Source of the DNA: Escherichia phage EcS1
Sequence record: NC_055721.1
Direction: 5' to 3' (one strand)
Length of the DNA stretch: 64,000 nucleotides
Under the pieces are notes generated by a model. The model was not told the DNA's origin, searched no databases, and saw nothing but the letters and a program-made list of their open reading frames with translations. The position numbers and the translations under genes are program-made. Shown here one piece after another: positions 5,909 through 45,284 of this stretch; within the stretch, counting starts at the first letter, position 1; each line of letters starts with the position of its first letter.

Positions 5909-5941
5909 CTGGGAAATATTTGAAGTGATCATTAAGGTCAC
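5909..5941. repeat. 12-bp inverted repeat (hairpin) in intergenic remnant region
   Basis: TATTTGAAGTGA ... TCACTTCAAATA arms with 9-nt spacer. Confidence 0.5.
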
Positions 5942-6062
5942 TTCAAATAATTATTGGATAGAACTCTTCTGGCTTGTGAAAGAGATTCTGCATCAGTGTA
6001 GGCTCTGCACGTCTTTATAGTCGAATGCCATCCACTTGATTTAGAATGCATAACAATGATAG

Positions 6063-40119: not shown

Positions 40120-40195
40120 TGGTGCTGAATGCAGGAATCGAACCCGCGACCTTCTCATTACAAGTGAGCTGCTCTACCTACTGAGCTAATTCAGC
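40120..40195 (-). tRNA. tRNA-Thr (anticodon UGU)
   Basis: 76 nt; perfect 7-bp acceptor stem, canonical D and T arms (TTCGATT), anticodon loop CTTGTAA, encoded CCA. Confidence 0.8.
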
Positions 40196-40199
40196 AATT

Positions 40200-40284
40200 T
40201 GGTGCATCGAGAGGGATTCGAACCCTCAATCCTCGCGGCGTGGCATTTTAAGTGCCATGTGTATACCAGTTCCACCATCGATGC
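40200..40284 (-). tRNA. tRNA-Leu (anticodon UAA)
   Basis: 85 nt class-II tRNA; anticodon arm TGGCA-CTTAAAA-TGCCA, T loop TTCGAAT, CCA encoded. Confidence 0.8.
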
Positions 40285-40288
40285 GAAT

Positions 40289-40364
40289 TGGTCGAGACAG
40301 TAGGGATCGAACCTACGACCTAGGACTTAGAAGGTCCTTGCTCTTCCGTCTGAGCTATGCCCCG
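40289..40364 (-). tRNA. tRNA-Arg (anticodon UCU)
   Basis: 76 nt; anticodon arm AGGAC-CTTCTAA-GTCCT, T loop TTCGATC, CCA encoded. Confidence 0.75.
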
Positions 40365-40537
40365 TCTTTGTATAAACGTTCTAAGTAAACATGCTCCATC
40401 GGTTTAACGATTTCGCCTTGTTTCAATAATTGTGTTTGAATAGGATTCAAATTATAAAATTTGATCACATCTCTGAGATCTTGTTCGCTATAATTAAAAG
40501 TTCCTACTTCTACTCCGATTTGCATAAGTATCCTTTT

Positions 40538-40624
40538 TGGAGCTAGGAGTGAGATTCGAACTCACGAAAGCATAACGCTACTGGATTTGCAATCCAGCGC
40601 CTTTGACCACTCGGCAATCCTAGC
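40538..40624 (-). tRNA. class-II tRNA with anticodon GCA (Ser/Tyr-type architecture, Cys anticodon)
   Basis: 87 nt; perfect acceptor stem GCTAGGA/TCCTAGC, D arm GCC-GAGTGGTCAAA-GGC, anticodon arm CTGGA-TTGCAAA-TCCAG, long variable arm, T loop TTCGAAT, CCA. Confidence 0.65.
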
Positions 40625-40755
40625 AAATGTTCAGGTGGGAGTCGAACCCACACGATTGAAGCCTCTCATCGGGTTACCTCTTACTCAGCTGGGTGCTTAA
40701 ACCAGCGTTTCAAACAGAGTCCGCCAACATGTCTACCGATTCCATCACTGAACAA
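40625..40755 (-). ncRNA. tRNA-like structured RNA, about 130 nt (possible stable-RNA analogue)
   Basis: canonical T arm GTGGG-TTCGACT-CCCAC and 7-bp acceptor pairing, but the ends are about 130 nt apart and no standard anticodon arm was found. Confidence 0.3.
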
Positions 40756-40758
40756 TTT

Positions 40759-40983
40759 TTACATATCTACTTGACAAAACCAGTTCATTTCAAAATATTC
40801 ATCAAAATGTAATGCAGGTTCTACTTGACAATTTTCTTCTAATAAGACCAAATTTCTTCTAACAATAGGGTCTAATGACGTGATGGTCAAAGCACTATCA
40901 TGATAGTAAATCAGAACACGAAGCGAATCTGTATCAACTAAATACCGAACATTCATATCAGGATGTTTGTAGAGGTTAATCAT
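40759..40983 (-). CDS. hypothetical protein
   Basis: 74-aa ORF. Confidence 0.35.
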   Translation of the reverse strand: MINLYKHPDMNVRYLVDTDSLRVLIYYHDSALTITSLDPIVRRNLVLLEENCQVEPALHFDEYFEMNWFCQVDM

Positions 40984-40989
40984 AACATT

Positions 40990-41436
40990 TTATCCTTGAA
41001 GCATTTCACGAACACGATAAAGATTAGAACAGAATTCTTGTTCAGTTAGAACAGTTTCATTCTTTTTATTCTTACCCATGCTATGAGTTAATGTTGAGTT
41101 ACGCGTAGCTAGGAGTGCTCTCTTGAATCCTTCATTCAAAGCCAGAGAATCATATGCTCGCTGAATTAAAGACGTATAGGCTATACTTTGACGTAAAATA
41201 GGGACACCTTTCCAGTACAACGTTTGGGTGCGCCACCAGTTCTTTTTCTTACCTTTGAACTTAGCTTTCTTACCAACTAATGTACAGACATGCTCTTGCA
41301 TTTCTACTGAAGAAAACTTCAATGATTGCAAGAAACCTTCCATTGATGCACACTGTACTCCATCAATTTCGAAAGCATGAGGAGCAAAGTTACTTAATGC
41401 ACAACTTGGGTACATTGAACCTGAACCAATATCCAT
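40990..41436 (-). CDS. NADAR (YbiA-like) domain protein
   Basis: 148 aa; SNFAPHAFEIDG...SMEGFLQSLKF, KRALLATRN, NLYRVREML align with remembered YbiA/NADAR blocks. Confidence 0.7.
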   Translation of the reverse strand: MDIGSGSMYPSCALSNFAPHAFEIDGVQCASMEGFLQSLKFSSVEMQEHVCTLVGKKAKFKGKKKNWWRTQTLYWKGVPILRQSIAYTSLIQRAYDSLALNEGFKRALLATRNSTLTHSMGKNKKNETVLTEQEFCSNLYRVREMLQG

Positions 41437-41527
41437 TATCCATTATTCCTTTGATGATAATAACAGCGTTTACATCGATACCAACCGAAATAATCTTTGT
41501 AGATTATTCTATTGCAGTTGGGACATT

Positions 41528-41782
41528 TCATGCTGGTTCTACCTCAGTCATTGTTGTCCGTTTCAGAACCACACAACCTTCTATTTCAGGGTCTTTCTTA
41601 ACCAGAACTCGTCCAGTAGGCGAAATAAGGCCAGTAATATGATTCAGAGCTTTAGCAGCATCATTGAAGCCATCAGCTTGCATAATCGTTCCGAATGAGA
41701 ACCCTTGATAGTGATTACTAAACTCGTAATAAGCGTATTCTTCACGAATAGGGCAATAAATCACATAATCAACATTCAGCAT
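41528..41782 (-). CDS. hypothetical protein
   Basis: 84-aa ORF. Confidence 0.35.
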   Translation of the reverse strand: MLNVDYVIYCPIREEYAYYEFSNHYQGFSFGTIMQADGFNDAAKALNHITGLISPTGRVLVKKDPEIEGCVVLKRTTMTEVEPA

Positions 41783-42114
41783 AAGTCACCTACACATTGG
41801 AGAGCACGATGGTGTGACCATATTTCTAAAGTCTTTTCGTTGGCTTTATTAATTCGACGAAGGTCATTTAAATTACCTTTAACATATAACCCAAGTTCAC
41901 TTAACAAATGATCGATAGTGAAATAAGAAATATCTCGCAGTGGAGCATAACGGAACTTAATGAAGTGCCATTCATCAAACTCGTTTTTGGTAAACGCATA
42001 ATCAGCATGCATCATGAGTTCGCGAATCGTTTCACGCATCAAAAAGACATTACCGTGATAAGAATCATTTATAGCAACAATATGTGGACCTACACCTAGA
42101 TAGATACGAGACAT
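41776..42114 (-). CDS. hypothetical protein
   Basis: 112-aa ORF. Confidence 0.45.
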   Translation of the reverse strand: MSRIYLGVGPHIVAINDSYHGNVFLMRETIRELMMHADYAFTKNEFDEWHFIKFRYAPLRDISYFTIDHLLSELGLYVKGNLNDLRRINKANEKTLEIWSHHRALQCVGDLC

Positions 42115-42324
42115 AATATTTTCCTCAGTCAGTTTATTCTACATCATATTCAACTACAAGCACTTCTTCATAATCTTCAGGATTAAGAGTTTTAATGTAG
42201 TCTTCTGCTTTTTCTTTACTCGATAGAATCTTTAATGGCTTTGAATATTCATCATATCCATATTCACAGTTAAACTCTGACATAACAACTGCGTATACTA
42301 TCATAATATTTTCCTCATTTGAAT

Positions 42325-42401
42325 TGGTGGCCCTTGTCGGAGTCTAACCGACCTTACACCAGTTATGAGCTGGGCACTTTCACACGAAAGTATAAAGGGC
42401 C
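42325..42401 (-). tRNA. tRNA-like element with CAU anticodon (Met or Ile2), atypical T loop
   Basis: 77 nt; perfect acceptor GGCCCTT/AAGGGCC, anticodon loop CTCATAA, T arm GTCGG-TTAGACT-CCGAC, CCA encoded; 5' end overlaps a terminator hairpin. Confidence 0.5.
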
Positions 42402-42434
42402 ATTATTAAAATATTTTTACTTTAATAATGGCCC
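42397..42434 (-). terminator. rho-independent terminator (14-bp perfect inverted repeat)
   Basis: GGGCCATTATTAAA ... TTTAATAATGGCCC with 10-nt loop; on minus strand followed by TTTATAC; downstream of 42459..42743. Confidence 0.55.
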
Positions 42435-42458
42435 TCTCCGAAGAGAGGACAGAGGGTA

Positions 42459-42743
42459 TTACTTACACATGAACTTAGCAACTTCATCGAAGCTGTTCAA
42501 GATGTAATAAGACTTAGGCGCACTGTATTCAGTAGGTTTAATAGTAATACGTACACGACCATGCAAGTCTTCAACTAATCCAACAACAGCACTTGAACGA
42601 ACAACAGCACGAGCAGTTGTAGGAATCTGACCGGTAGTCAGAGCTTGAAGTTCGGTGTCAATAAGGATTACAATACGTTCAGACATTTTAATTTCCATTT
42701 GTTGTTTCGATGTAGTAATAATAACATGATTATTTTGAAGCAT
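42459..42743 (-). CDS. hypothetical protein
   Basis: 94-aa ORF downstream of promoter copy 4. Confidence 0.4.
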   Translation of the reverse strand: MLQNNHVIITTSKQQMEIKMSERIVILIDTELQALTTGQIPTTARAVVRSSAVVGLVEDLHGRVRITIKPTEYSAPKSYYILNSFDEVAKFMCK

Positions 42744-42750
42744 AACCGTT
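42703..42750 (-). promoter_or_regulatory. early-type promoter-like element (repeat copy 4)
   Basis: minus strand ATGCTTCA...TGtTATTATTACT...CATCGAAACAA. Confidence 0.45.
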
Positions 42751-42801
42751 CAGAGACTAAAAAGCCCAGTACAAGATTTCTCTTGCCCGGGCGTCATTAT
42801 T

Positions 42802-42876
42802 TGGAGCAGCATATCGGACTCGAACCGATGTCGACTGGGTGGAAGCCAGTAATATTAACCACTATACGAATGCTGC
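42802..42876 (-). tRNA. tRNA-Gly (anticodon UCC)
   Basis: 75 nt; anticodon arm ACTGG-CTTCCAC-CCAGT, T arm ATCGG-TTCGAGT-CCGAT, CCA. Confidence 0.75.
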
Positions 42877-42877
42877 A

Positions 42878-42951
42878 TGGCAGGCCCTGTAGGAATCGAA
42901 CCCACGTCGCTGAGGTTGGAGCTCAGAATGATACCACTATACCAAGGACCC
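42878..42951 (-). tRNA. tRNA-Trp (anticodon CCA)
   Basis: 74 nt; anticodon arm CTGAG-CTCCAAC-CTCAG, T loop TTCGATT; D stem weak. Confidence 0.6.
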
Positions 42952-43262
42952 GTTGATTGTACGGAACGCCTGGATTCGAACCAGGTTACAAAGCAGTTGA
43001 CGCTCCTTTGTATTTTGTAAGGCCATCATCTCGACCATATCCGAACGTTTCGTCAAAAACGCTACTCGGCTTATGGCAAAGACAAATCCTCGAACCGATA
43101 ATTGGTGGGAGCTGTTGGTAACGATCCAACCTCTCGAGCTCTTCAGGCAAGCGCTAATCCGTCTCAGCTAAACTCCCAGATCCACAAGAACTTTACAAGC
43201 ATTGCGCTTAACCTTTTCAGGAAGTTAGGGTACTATTTCTAGTCTGTGGTTATCCCTATTTT
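42952..43262 (-). ncRNA. structured non-coding region inside tRNA cluster (tRNA-like fragments)
   Basis: contains a canonical T arm CCTGG-TTCGAAT-CCAGG at about 42967-42985 and several hairpins but no complete cloverleaf was found by eye. Confidence 0.25.
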
Positions 43263-43338
43263 TGGTGGGAATAGCTGGATTTGAACCAGCGACCTATCGC
43301 TTATCGGGCGAGTGCTCTACCAACTGAGCTATATTCCC
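43263..43338 (-). tRNA. tRNA-Ile (anticodon GAU)
   Basis: 76 nt; GGGAATA acceptor, GCTCAGTTGGTAGAGC D arm, anticodon loop CCGATAA, T loop TTCAAAT, CCA. Confidence 0.8.
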
Positions 43339-43344
43339 ATAATT

Positions 43345-43421
43345 TGGTCTCCATATAAGGATTTGAACCTTAGACCTCCTGGCCCCAAACCAGGCGCTCT
43401 ACCAAACTGAGCTACACGGAG
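43345..43421 (-). tRNA. tRNA-Pro (anticodon UGG)
   Basis: 77 nt; anticodon arm CCTGG-TTTGGGG-CCAGG, T loop TTCAAAT, CCA. Confidence 0.75.
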
Positions 43422-43422
43422 A

Positions 43423-43668
43423 TTAATTTATATCAAATATGGTGCCATCTTTCCACATCATTGCGAAAAGAGGTGAAACTTTTGTTAAACGGTGTGCAAC
43501 TTTAACTTGACGGCTAAAACCTTCAATTTGAGCACCATAACCATTTATATCTAATACAAGACCAATATGAACTTTGCCAATATCAGACATACCATTTGAA
43601 GGTAATCCAATCATGACATAATCGTTAACTTCGATTTGTTTACCATATTTGTCAAATAATATCTTCAT
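43423..43668 (-). CDS. hypothetical protein embedded in tRNA cluster
   Basis: 81-aa ORF between tRNA-Pro and tRNA-Ser. Confidence 0.35.
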   Translation of the reverse strand: MKILFDKYGKQIEVNDYVMIGLPSNGMSDIGKVHIGLVLDINGYGAQIEGFSRQVKVAHRLTKVSPLFAMMWKDGTIFDIN

Positions 43669-43693
43669 AATTATTTATTCACCATATTTTAAT

Positions 43694-43787
43694 TGGAGGA
43701 AGCTGTGAGATTTGAACTCACGGAACCTGTCCCCAGGACCTCTAGTTTTCAAGACTAGTGCAATAAACCAGACTCTGCCAAGCTTCC
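43694..43787 (-). tRNA. tRNA-Ser (anticodon UGA)
   Basis: 94 nt class-II; anticodon arm CTAGT-CTTGAAA-ACTAG, long variable arm, T loop TTCAAAT, CCA. Confidence 0.75.
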
Positions 43788-43791
43788 GAAT

Positions 43792-43867
43792 TGGGGTGAC
43801 CTGTGGAATTCGAATCCACGACTACGAGAATCACAATCTCGAGTTCTACCAACTGAACTAAGGCCAC
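43792..43867 (-). tRNA. tRNA-His (anticodon GUG)
   Basis: 76 nt; anticodon arm CGAGA-TTGTGAT-TCTCG, T loop TTCGAAT, discriminator C, CCA. Confidence 0.7.
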
Positions 43868-43967
43868 ATCAATATTCACTCAGCCACTTCGTGCGGACCT
43901 GTCTCGATATTACGTGTAGTGGATTAGCTAGTTCACACCACTATATCGTCTAGAATGAATATTAATT

Positions 43968-44043
43968 TGGCTAGAGCGCTTGGATTCGAACCAAGGAATA
44001 CCAGAATCAAAATCTGGTGTCGTAACCGCTTGACTACGCTCTA
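43968..44043 (-). tRNA. tRNA-Gln (anticodon UUG)
   Basis: 76 nt; anticodon arm CCAGA-TTTTGAT-TCTGG, T loop TTCGAAT, CCA. Confidence 0.75.
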
Positions 44044-44045
44044 AT

Positions 44046-44121
44046 TGGAGGCGAGTGATGGAATCGAACCATCGCGTAAAGGGATATGAACCCTTTATTC
44101 TACCACTGAAGTTAACTCGCT
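44046..44121 (-). tRNA. tRNA-Met (anticodon CAU), initiator-like
   Basis: 76 nt; anticodon stem ends in three consecutive G-C pairs (AAGGG/CCCTT), loop TTCATAT, position 1-72 unpaired (A-C), CCA. Confidence 0.65.
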
Positions 44122-44248
44122 ATTGTCCGGGTTCTCGAAGTAAAAACAAGTAGCTTGATGTAGAACACATAAAGTGGGAACAACTCACTTCATCTCCTAG
44201 CATTATTGTATGGAGACTCAAACTCATCTTCAAGAACTGCTTCGTATT

Positions 44249-44325
44249 TGGCGGACGTGCTTGGACTCGAACCAAGGACCTATCGCTTAACAGGCGACCG
44301 CTCTAACCAACTGAGCTACACATCC
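44249..44325 (-). tRNA. tRNA-Asn (anticodon GUU)
   Basis: 77 nt; anticodon loop CTGTTAA, T loop TTCGAGT, CCA. Confidence 0.75.
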
Positions 44326-44329
44326 AAAA

Positions 44330-44461
44330 TTTACTTTCAGGGTTACTCGAAGCTCTCAAACCTTCCGGAAAGTCGAATAAGCATCTCATCCTCTCAGAAT
44401 CCCGTGCACAGGAAAAATCTTTATTAGGAGGAGACTAAATCAATATAACCCTGAAAGTAAA
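44330..44461. repeat. 16-bp perfect inverted repeat flanking a 100-nt spacer
   Basis: TTTACTTTCAGGGTTA at 44330-44345 and TAACCCTGAAAGTAAA at 44446-44461. Confidence 0.8.
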
Positions 44462-44475
44462 CTTACTTTCGAATT

Positions 44476-44552
44476 TGGTGGGACATCATGGACTCGAACC
44501 ATGGACACCCGGATTAAAAGTCCGGTGCTCTAACCAACTGAGCTAATATCCC
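44476..44552 (-). tRNA. tRNA-Lys (anticodon UUU)
   Basis: 77 nt; anticodon arm CCGGA-CTTTTAA-TCCGG, T loop TTCGAGT, CCA. Confidence 0.8.
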
Positions 44553-45015
44553 ATAGATATTTATCTATAAATCTCTTAGCTTGAGTATGACTTATATTTA
44601 AACTTTTACTAAACTTGGTTAATGCACCTCGTTTAGTAAAATCTATTAAATTATAAGCTTCAATTCTAGAAGCAATTTCTTCTTCAGACAAAACCAAAGC
44701 ATGGTTTTCTGAAATCTTTTTACGAGATTCTGTTGTATGTGACATACCAGTAAAACCAAGAGTAGGTTTTAGTCTACCATTAGCTTTAGCGTCTTGTGCA
44801 TTTTGTTTATTTGTCGCACAATAAATGTTTTCTAATGAATAAGGACCTATATCGCCTTTACGACACATGCAATAATCCAAACTTGCTTTACCACGTAAAT
44901 GATATTTACCTGTTGATTTCCACCAAGTAAACCACTCATCAAAAGTTAGATTAAATTCAATACCACGAGCTTTGGCATGAACTTTTTGCATACGGTACTT
45001 TTCATAATCTTCCAT
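44530..45015 (-). CDS. homing-endonuclease-like protein (NUMOD3-like motif, C-terminal DNA-binding region)
   Basis: start set to ATG at 45013-45015 (MEDYEKY...); GFTGMSHTTESRKKISENH resembles NUMOD3; 3' end reads through the 5' part of tRNA-Lys. Confidence 0.4.
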   Translation of the reverse strand: MEDYEKYRMQKVHAKARGIEFNLTFDEWFTWWKSTGKYHLRGKASLDYCMCRKGDIGPYSLENIYCATNKQNAQDAKANGRLKPTLGFTGMSHTTESRKKISENHALVLSEEEIASRIEAYNLIDFTKRGALTKFSKSLNISHTQAKRFIDKYLWDISSVG

Positions 45016-45030
45016 ACAACTCTCACAAAT

Positions 45031-45106
45031 TGGCAGTGCCGACGGGATTCGAACCCGCATGGTCTCCCGTGACAGGGGAGTATATTACCAAGTCTACCAC
45101 GGCACT
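45031..45106 (-). tRNA. tRNA-Asp (anticodon GUC)
   Basis: 76 nt; anticodon arm CTCCC-CTGTCAC-GGGAG, T loop TTCGAAT, CCA. Confidence 0.75.
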
Positions 45107-45112
45107 ATTGTT

Positions 45113-45187
45113 TGGTACTCTGTAGGAGAATTGAACTCCTCTTCCCAGGTTGAAAACCTGGTGTCCTAACCGATAGACGAACAGAGC
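45113..45187 (-). tRNA. tRNA-Glu (anticodon UUC)
   Basis: 75 nt; D arm TCGTCTATCGGTTAGGACACC, anticodon arm CCAGG-TTTTCAA-CCTGG, CCA. Confidence 0.75.
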
Positions 45188-45195
45188 TAAGAATT

Positions 45196-45284
45196 TGGTG
45201 CACCGAGAAGGACTCGAACCTACGAAGCTCATTACAAGCAGGAGATTTACAGTCTCCACCCTTTGCCACTCGGGTCATCGATGC
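45196..45284 (-). tRNA. tRNA-Tyr (anticodon GUA)
   Basis: about 89 nt class-II; anticodon arm GGAGA-CTGTAAA-TCTCC, long variable arm, T loop TTCGAGT, CCA. Confidence 0.7.

Follow-up and report, generated by a model that had tools for sequence, protein, structure and literature searches.

Isoleucine-type tRNAs with a CAU anticodon are a described component of T4-like phages. Lysidine-type CAU tRNAs of this group were described in 2006, when every tRNA-bearing T4-like genome was reported to have a CAU tRNA with tRNA-Ile signatures, presumed to be lysidine-modified (Nolan et al. 2006, PMC1524935). The bacterial isoleucine determinants are A73, C4-G69, C29-G41 and the anticodon loop, with U12-A23, G16, U20 and U21 as minor determinants defined for E. 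coli tRNA-Ile, while the methionine determinants include U4-A69 and A5-U68, and CAU and A73 are major for MetRS (Giege and Eriani compilation, PMC9976931). The pairs C4:G69 and C5:G68 are the dominant EcTilS identity pairs according to the part of PMC12514573 that summarises the work of Ikeuchi et al. The elbow of canonical tRNAs contains a Watson–Crick pair 19:56 (PMC4810234). Here we describe a CAU tRNA gene of Escherichia phage EcS1, located on the minus strand at 42325..42401 of a 64,000-nt stretch of sequence record NC_055721.1 (hereafter, the window). Judged from its sequence, it is probably a phage-encoded tRNA-Ile2, that is, a lysidine-dependent reader of the rare AUA codon, and its elbow pair is swapped.

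The element, delimited by its sequence and by a leave-one-out covariance model, is 77 nt long and ends with an encoded CCA. Read on the minus strand from 42401 to 42325, its 5′ half is GGCCCUU-UA-UACU-UUCGUGUGAA-AGUG-CCCAG-CUCAUAA-CUGGU-GUAAG and the remaining 3′ half is GUCGG-UUAGACU-CCGAC-AAGGGCC-A-CCA. The 7-bp acceptor stem and the 5-bp T stem are perfect, and the generic features of a tRNA cloverleaf (the arms, U33, a purine at position 37, the discriminator and CCA) are all present. The anticodon CAU (42365..42367, minus strand) lies in the loop CUCAUAA (42363-42369). Everything that the earlier note had read from the letters, namely a 77-nt CAU element with its acceptor stem, T stem, loop CTCATAA, CCA and A56, is indeed found in the sequence. 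The canonical elbow nucleotides G18, G19 and T54-Psi55-C56 are replaced by G18-U19 and U54-U55-A56. A56 (42345, minus strand), in the T loop UUAGACU (42341-42347), stands where C56 is near-universal; its Watson–Crick partner, as suggested by covariation, would be the equivalent of U19 (42382, minus strand) in the D loop UUCGUGUGAA (42378-42387). This loop reads GUGUG, without the G18G19 consensus; position 14 is not A, and the pair 27:43 is a C.U mismatch. The predicted minimum free energy fold is the cloverleaf, except for an extended D stem and a shifted top of the anticodon stem. This extension of the D stem to a 6-bp hairpin is not a general feature of the homologues, as column 14 varies uncompensated in the others. 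The element is a real, intact, conserved and functional-looking phage tRNA gene.

A blastn search with the 77 nt revealed homologues in 31 phage records with 75-88% identity; their absence from related genomes, together with that of a mature small RNA, was what the earlier note would have counted against its own proposal. The matches belong to Karamvirus (Entb_43, Pet-CM3-4, KMB17, KMB19, EnA02), Kanagawavirus (KLB31, Kosakonia 305), Enterobacter phage ZX14, Tulanevirus and its relatives (Aes012, Aes508, IME13, phage 25), the jumbo phages Pectobacterium CBB, Yersinia fHe-Yen9-04 and Escherichia JNE01, and Plateaulakevirus (TS9, PAc). Further viral and metagenomic members were added by pattern scans; eight of the nine loci found by the metagenome scan are members of the family (seven distinct sequences). 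The resulting family alignment, A3, contains 19 distinct sequences, the window copy and 18 others, which share the D loop N-U-C-(G)-N-G-U-G-A-A and the T loop UUAGAYU. The anticodon loop CUCAUAA and A73 are invariant in 19/19, and so is CCA. No members with other anticodons were found: when viral contigs were scanned for the scaffold with any anticodon allowed, only CAU members were obtained. A covariance model, R1, was built from the 18 other members with the window copy left out. It recognises the window copy with 99.1 bits (E ~1e-24) over model positions 1-77, and the copy agrees with every strongly conserved position of R1; the runner-up in the window, a tRNA-Ile(GAU), scores 36.7 bits. 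The GenBank labels of the homologues vary. The copies of KLB31 and ZX14, 87-88% identical to the window copy, are annotated as tRNA-Ile2, that of Entb_43 as tRNA-Ile (tRNAscan-SE), and others as tRNA-Met (among them those of CBB, Aes012 and TS9) or not at all. The element is thus an already-annotated kind of phage tRNA, known in other phages as tRNA-Ile2, tRNA-Ile or tRNA-Met.

A cellular origin of the family received no support from genome scans. A blastn search of the element against 5,426 E. coli genomes gave no match, and a scan of 185,579 bacterial and archaeal genomes, made with a strict pattern, gave four matches and no family member. The four candidates were rejected, one being a canonical GG/C56 CAU tRNA of Ca. 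Endobugula and three being non-tRNAs.

The covariation analysis, a check that the earlier note had proposed, was run on the 19 sequences of A3 and revealed compensation in all four helices. Standard pairs occupy 95.9% of the pair cells (the cloverleaf plus one tertiary pair), double-sided changes occur in 15 of the 22 pairs, and the compensatory pairs number two in the acceptor stem and four each in the D, anticodon and T stems. None of 500 shuffles reached any of five measures, and when the 3′ partners were moved by 1-3 columns, only 33-50% of the cells remained paired. The cloverleaf of the element is under selection as a structured RNA. The tertiary pair 19:56 (alignment columns 20 and 58) is Watson–Crick in 19/19: U:A in 16 sequences, C:G in two and G:C in one. 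C19:G56 occurs in the metagenomic sequence L022 and in Aeromonas phage PAc, which otherwise group with different family members, and G19:C56 occurs in JNE01. In the family, position 14 varies instead of being a fixed A. The family thus offers a natural covariation series (U:A, C:G, G:C) at 19:56, which indicates that the geometry of the pair is selected, and not its sequence. RNase P makes use of this pair, as do the L1 stalk of the ribosome and protein L5.

When viral contigs were scanned for CAU tRNAs carrying the T loop UURGAYU, 44 loci were obtained; without the six already in the set, these represent 27 distinct sequences (L040-L077), among which there are many unrelated acceptor stems. 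Their D loops contain GU together with A56 and GC together with G56, as can be seen by comparing L053 (AAGUGUUA with UUAGAUU) and L062 (AAGUGCUA with UUGGAUU). A control scan with the Arg(UCU) anticodon loop (L078-L105) revealed a few viral tRNAs with GU/A56 and GC/G56. The idea that a non-G:C 19:56 pair is specific to CAU tRNAs was therefore rejected; since the swap is found in unrelated CAU and Arg(UCU) tRNAs, it seems to be recurrent in viral tRNAs rather than family-specific. In one Arg tRNA, present in 16 loci, the canonical GG D loop was observed together with A56. A search of literature outside subscription journals found no paper naming the U19-A56 pair or its variants, and a broader search on A56 and phages returned irrelevant matches only; this absence is a weak sign of novelty.

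Several observations on individual family loci can be added. An HNH/homing-endonuclease gene lies 18-62 nt from the family tRNA in CBB, fHe-Yen9-04 and JNE01 (504-877 in locus L006, 497-878 in L007 and 1-338 in L008), and the tRNA cluster of Aes012 contains a Seg-like GIY-YIG gene. Such genes next to the tRNAs are a possible vehicle for the spread of the family; beside the window copy, Pfam revealed no homing endonuclease. The JNE01 copy (401-476 in L008), unannotated in GenBank, has an aberrant T loop GGCAGCA and the D loop AUCCAGGAA and keeps all helices; it may represent either a decaying tRNA or a variant of a more extreme kind. Read by eye, a sigma-70-like promoter sequence is located just upstream of it, and a weaker one in the metagenomic loci L025 and L027.

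The identity of the element can be approached through the determinants listed above. C4:G69 and C5:G68 are present in the window copy and invariant in 19/19, and C29:G41 is kept in 18/19, with its three neighbouring pairs covarying freely. The anticodon loop C32-U33-C34-A35-U36-A37-A38 is that expected of Ile2, and the element has the IleRS determinants A73, C4-G69 and C29-G41. The MetRS acceptor determinants U4-A69 and A5-U68 are absent from all 19 sequences. In KLB31, the family copy is the only CAU tRNA among the six annotated tRNAs of the cluster, and no second GGCCC-type CAU tRNA was found in the tRNA clusters of KLB31, Entb_43 and Aes012. The only other CAU tRNA of the window (44046-44121) is initiator-like. 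In the long open reading frames (ORFs) of the window, AUA is used 6.8 times per 1000 codons and represents 10% of the isoleucine codons, a usage that is compatible with an Ile2 identity and lends it weak support.

The element is overlooked by generic tRNA finders. ARAGORN, suggested by the earlier note as a check, made no call for it among the 17 tRNAs predicted in the whole window. The Rfam model RF00005 reports 18 tRNAs in the window, and the element is absent even at E ≤ 10 in a search of 351 nt (42200-42550). As for the homologues, ARAGORN calls four of the five tested and labels every CAU tRNA Met, while RF00005 scores PAc, IME13, Aes012, Kosakonia 305 and Entb_43 at 35-41 bits and KLB31 at 22 bits, and gives no match for the TS9, CBB, Yen9-04 and JNE01 copies. 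The Rfam gathering threshold of 29 bits is an operational cut-off and not a biological criterion. The poor scores of the family can be explained by its atypical D loop and T loop and by the U19:A56 elbow. In the window, an intact tRNA, probably the AUA decoder of the phage, thus escapes both ARAGORN and Rfam, and the decoding capacity of the phage would therefore be under-annotated. The sole Rfam match at the element is Plastid-ycf2 (RF04354), on the plus (antisense) strand at 42327-42401 with 17.8 bits; antisense matches of this model are stronger in other family members and reach 40.2 bits (L011 386-458, L009 385-458, L004 604-677, and others). Plastid-ycf2 as an identity was rejected as an artefact, because the consensus of the model reads as the reverse complement of plastid trnI-CAU; incidentally, these matches mirror a likeness to a tRNA-Ile(CAU).

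The element was called isolated in the earlier note; in fact, it lies within a cluster of 17-18 tRNA genes, all on the minus strand (40120-45284), between a Thr-Leu-Arg-Cys block and a Gly-Trp block and 400 nt from tRNA-Gly. It is flanked by two small ORFs of the same strand. The upstream one (42459..42743, minus strand), 94 aa from its first ATG and without a Pfam match, would be transcribed into the hairpins described below and the tRNA; Winklervirus and Karamvirus retain its 3′ end, identically placed with respect to the tRNA. The downstream one (42134..42304, minus strand), 56 aa, shows a weak sub-threshold match to DUF7336 and has its Shine–Dalgarno sequence and ATG from 21 nt past the CCA; both genera have kept the GAGGAAAATA motif and the ATG after it.

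The window belongs to a T4-like phage. The nearest genomes of the phage collection are those of Winklervirus (CHI14, Kc304, Vettismorki and others), with ~80% identity over ~58% of a 10-kb probe. The end of the upstream ORF, the two hairpins and the downstream Shine–Dalgarno sequence and ATG are the same in Vettismorki, Kc304 and CHI14; the tRNA in their slot is canonical and begins with GGCCCUGUAGCUCAG. The upstream hairpins and the CAU tRNA start GGCCCUGUAGCUCAG also occur in X20, Gravdalen and Virsaitis27. The canonical Winklervirus tRNA is ~79% identical to the E. coli tRNA-Ile(CAU) genes and resembles T4 tRNA-Ile. Karamvirus Entb_43 has the non-canonical form in the same slot. When positions 42270-42475 of the window are compared with both types (loci L002 and L003), the upstream hairpins are Winklervirus-like (~90%), the tRNA and the next 25 nt are Karamvirus-like (86.5%), and the boundary falls inside the GGCCC common to both tRNA types. 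Flanks of the Winklervirus type and a tRNA of the Karamvirus type are thus combined in the window.

The 5′ end of the tRNA is shared with a long A/U-rich leader hairpin (42396..42435, minus strand) with a 4-nt loop and 17-18 bp including a G.U pair. Nucleotides 1-6 of the tRNA form part of its 3′ arm. The underlying inverted repeat is 15 bp long when perfect (42396-42410 with 42421-42435), or 18 nt at 94% complementarity; the repeat had been reported earlier as 14 bp covering the first five nucleotides of the tRNA, so that its existence holds and its size and overlap have to be corrected. It is the longest perfect short-loop hairpin of the window, where just two loci have a stem of at least 12 bp; in 20 composition-preserving block shuffles, such stems were absent from 18, and one and two were found once each. 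The other locus is 5917-5949 (TATTTGAAGTGA-loop-TCACTTCAAATA, with a 9-nt loop). Preceding the long hairpin is a UUCG-tetraloop hairpin (42431..42450, minus strand; constrained folds) with the core CCUCUC-UUCG-GAGAGG and up to 8 bp, whose 3′ G residues are common to the 5′ arm of the long hairpin. According to the folding model, it would close fully only once the long hairpin gives up GGGCC (42430-42434). The leader RNA reads ...UAA-UACCCUCUG-UCCUCUC-UUCG-GAGAGGGCC-AUUAUUAAAGUAA-AAAU-AUUUUAAUAAU-GGCCCU..., where the end corresponds to the first nucleotides of the tRNA. The UUCG hairpin, the long hairpin and the acceptor stem are thus serial structures with shared nucleotides. The leader folds with -28.8 kcal/mol (z = -8).

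The unconstrained fold of a 138-nt precursor (42325-42462) has -50.8 kcal/mol with the long hairpin intact, and nucleotides 1-4 of the tRNA are paired inside this hairpin with an equilibrium probability of ~0.94-0.98, in a model that ignores the tertiary structure of the tRNA. When the acceptor stem is enforced, the energy is -49.2 kcal/mol, the long hairpin is reduced to 12 A-U-rich pairs and the UUCG hairpin has 8 bp. The two states, proposed in the earlier note to be mutually exclusive, are so in the constrained folds and are nearly isoenergetic. The leader cut at G1 and folded alone forms the same two hairpins (-19.6 kcal/mol). Six Winklervirus genomes retain the long hairpin; in CHI14 and X20, it shows one mismatch and two compensatory changes from T:A to C:G. 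It is missing in Karamvirus Entb_43, in which UUU separates the UUCG hairpin from the tRNA. The UUCG hairpin is conserved in Winklervirus and is shorter in Karamvirus.

The long hairpin had also been taken for the terminator of the upstream gene. The hairpin itself is strong; however, in the six Winklervirus relatives the stem is followed by GGCCC and then UGUAGCUCAG, without a U tract, and in the window only by UUUAUACUUU, the tRNA's own sequence, where the sole U run is U6-U8 of the tRNA. In addition, a consensus terminator scan of the window did not flag this site. Because the relatives keep the hairpin without a U tract and the scan is silent, the terminator is unproven, and we consider it doubtful. 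As a working inference, the hairpin may be an RNA-stability or processing element, the base of which would be borrowed from the fixed GGCCC of the tRNA.

We prefer Ile2 to methionine as the identity of the element because the TilS/IleRS pairs are conserved, the homologues are labelled Ile2 or Ile in three records, and the slot is syntenic. The main rival, a functional elongator tRNA-Met with C34 unmodified or acetylated that would be charged by MetRS and read AUG, is unlikely. CAU and A73 are indeed the major MetRS determinants, the window has no elongator-type tRNA-Met, and the atypical D loop could block TilS, one TilS enzyme being D-loop dependent. Many records also label the homologues tRNA-Met; however, these labels probably rest on the anticodon alone, and two records say tRNA-Ile2 and one tRNAscan-SE annotation says tRNA-Ile. 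Moreover, the invariant pairs in 19/19 are C4:G69 and C5:G68, not U4:A69 and A5:U68, and the sister phages have a T4-type tRNA-Ile(CAU) in the slot. Some data nevertheless speak against the tRNA-Ile2 reading. The minor IleRS determinant U12-A23 is replaced by C12:G23 in 18/19, including the window copy, and G16, U20 and U21 cannot be mapped onto the atypical loop UUCGUGUGAA. The pair 27:43 is mismatched in 13/19, and the anticodon stem therefore has 4 bp. Some TilS enzymes depend on D-loop features (PMC12514573), so the altered D loop might impair lysidinylation, and an unmodified CAU tRNA would be a MetRS substrate (PMC9976931). In addition, AUA usage is only modestly high, neither ARAGORN nor RF00005 calls the window copy, five family members are under the Rfam gathering score or without any report, and the secondary-structure model slightly favours the hairpin state of the precursor.

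The silence of ARAGORN and Rfam, together with A56, the missing G18G19 and the C.U at 27:43, could also be taken as signs of a decaying tRNA pseudogene with drifted T and D loops. This reading is effectively refuted by covariation and has almost no probability left: these "defects" are shared by 19 distinct sequences whose phage groups are unrelated, each of the four helices shows compensatory changes, the window copy fits the conserved positions of R1, and the anticodon loop and CCA are invariant. All 19 homologues keep every helix, and A56 is matched by U19 and covaries with it; decay is ruled out because the Watson–Crick elbow pair is retained with another sequence. Of the earlier proposal (elongator Met or Ile2, or a decaying tRNA), the CAU tRNA therefore stands, Ile2 is the better of the two identities, and decay is dropped. 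A tRNA-like element with a mainly non-decoding role, for example an RNase P processing and punctuation signal that would, together with the overlapping hairpins, fix the ends and stability of the neighbouring mRNAs, or a decoy or competitor for a host tRNA-directed enzyme or a defence nuclease, is very unlikely as well. It would agree with the location between two small ORFs, the second of which starts after a spacer of 21 nt, with the mutual exclusion of the three serial structures and with the conservation of the hairpin–acceptor overlap in Winklervirus whichever tRNA body follows, and an altered elbow would change recognition by elbow-reading factors (PMC4810234). However, the invariant anticodon loop, A73, CCA and identity pairs are needed for decoding and not for an RNase P signal; Karamvirus, Kanagawavirus and the jumbo phages have no overlapping hairpin, and JNE01 has the upstream sigma-70-like sequence. 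We know of no defence system targeting tRNA-Ile2.

Under the tRNA-Ile2 reading, the gene would be transcribed from the minus strand in a polycistronic RNA, between the two small ORFs. The leader hairpin would sequester nucleotides 1-6 of the tRNA, making the precursor a near-isoenergetic two-state RNA. As the acceptor stem forms, with tertiary folding and the binding of RNase P, GGGCC would be stripped from the long hairpin, and the freed GGGCC would let the UUCG hairpin close fully. RNase P would release the tRNA at G1 (42401), leaving the upstream mRNA with a hairpin-protected 3′ end, and 3′ trimming would proceed to the encoded CCA, efficient maturation being assumed. The L-shape would be held by the swapped elbow U19:A56 in place of G19:C56, together with the atypical D loop. 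Host TilS would then convert C34 to lysidine via C4:G69 and C5:G68, IleRS would charge the tRNA via A73, C4:G69, C29:G41 and the modified anticodon loop, and the charged tRNA would read AUA codons.

Other genes of the cluster can be mentioned here. Among the ORFs between the tRNA blocks, Pfam identified a gp30.3 homologue at 40990-41436, minus strand (Phage_30_3, E = 1.5e-57), and, apart from the DUF7336-like ORF, found no match for the other small ORFs. A tRNA-Phe(GAA)-like gene at 43103-43177 (minus strand) is reported by Rfam only (36 bits) and missed by ARAGORN. Its T loop AUCGUUA has A54...U58 in place of U54...A58, there are two internal mismatches in the anticodon stem, and the syntenic gene of Erwinia phage Vettismorki is annotated as tRNA-Phe; it could be a non-canonical but functional phage tRNA, or a degenerate one. 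The initiator-like tRNA at 44046-44121 (minus strand), a tRNA-Met(CAU) according to ARAGORN, has an A1xC72 mismatch, three G:C pairs (29-31 with 39-41), the loop UUCAUAU and the discriminator U73.

A broader scenario can be considered: a phage-restricted tRNA-Ile2 lineage with a rebuilt core (the U19:A56 elbow, no A14 or G18G19 consensus and a 4-bp anticodon stem) that has spread over unrelated phage families and occupies one orthologous slot in alternation with the canonical T4-type gene, with adaptive rewiring and a hairpin folding switch. The rewiring might serve to evade a host or competitor factor that recognises the canonical elbow or gene sequence (for instance, a defence nuclease aimed at tRNAs, or a homing endonuclease from the tRNA region); alternatively, it might retune the discrimination between TilS and MetRS. 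In the window lineage, the hairpin capturing nucleotides 1-6 would couple tRNA maturation to the formation of the 3′ end of the upstream mRNA. As a whole, we consider this scenario quite improbable. The element leaves the current understanding of phage tRNAs unchanged and adds two modest curiosities: the standard tRNA finders overlook it, and its acceptor stem faces competition from the leader hairpin. The latter is a small example of competing RNA folds at a tRNA–mRNA junction.

tRNAs inside mRNAs that act as RNase P punctuation occur in bacterial mixed tRNA–mRNA operons, in the T4 tRNA region and in mitochondria. Like them, the element is located between two same-strand ORFs with very short spacers, and its processing would therefore generate the 3′ end of the preceding mRNA as well as the 5′ end of the following one. 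Unlike in these transcripts, the leader hairpin pairs with the 5′ strand of the tRNA itself, so that the folding of the tRNA and of the 3′ hairpin of the mRNA is coupled and exclusive. To our knowledge, such a coupling has no described precedent, although no literature search was made for it. With elongator tRNA-Met, the element shares CAU, A73 and an identical anticodon loop, but it lacks U4:A69 and A5:U68 and has the TilS pairs instead. With bacterial tRNA-Ile2 (E. coli ileX/ileY) and T4 tRNA-Ile, it has in common CAU in CUCAUAA, the 5′ GGCCC and 3′ GGG(C/U)CA, C4:G69, C5:G68, A73 and C29:G41, and the genomic slot is that of the canonical T4-type tRNA-Ile(CAU) gene in Winklervirus. By analogy with tRNA-Ile2, the element would be expected to read AUA after lysidine formation (PMC1524935, PMC12514573, PMC9976931). 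It differs from them in the elbow, which is U19:A56 and not G19:C56, in the D loop without A14 or G18G19, in the family pair 12:23, which is C:G and not U:A, and in the usually mismatched 27:43. The homologues of KLB31, ZX14, Entb_43, CBB, Aes012 and TS9 belong to the same family, with 82-88% identity over the part matched. The D loop, the T loop UUAGAYU and the identity pairs are the same in the annotated phage homologues, whereas some T-stem and anticodon-stem pairs are the window copy's own; a further difference, from the copies of Karamvirus, Kanagawavirus and the jumbo phages, is that the first six nucleotides of the window copy lie in a long Winklervirus-type leader hairpin.

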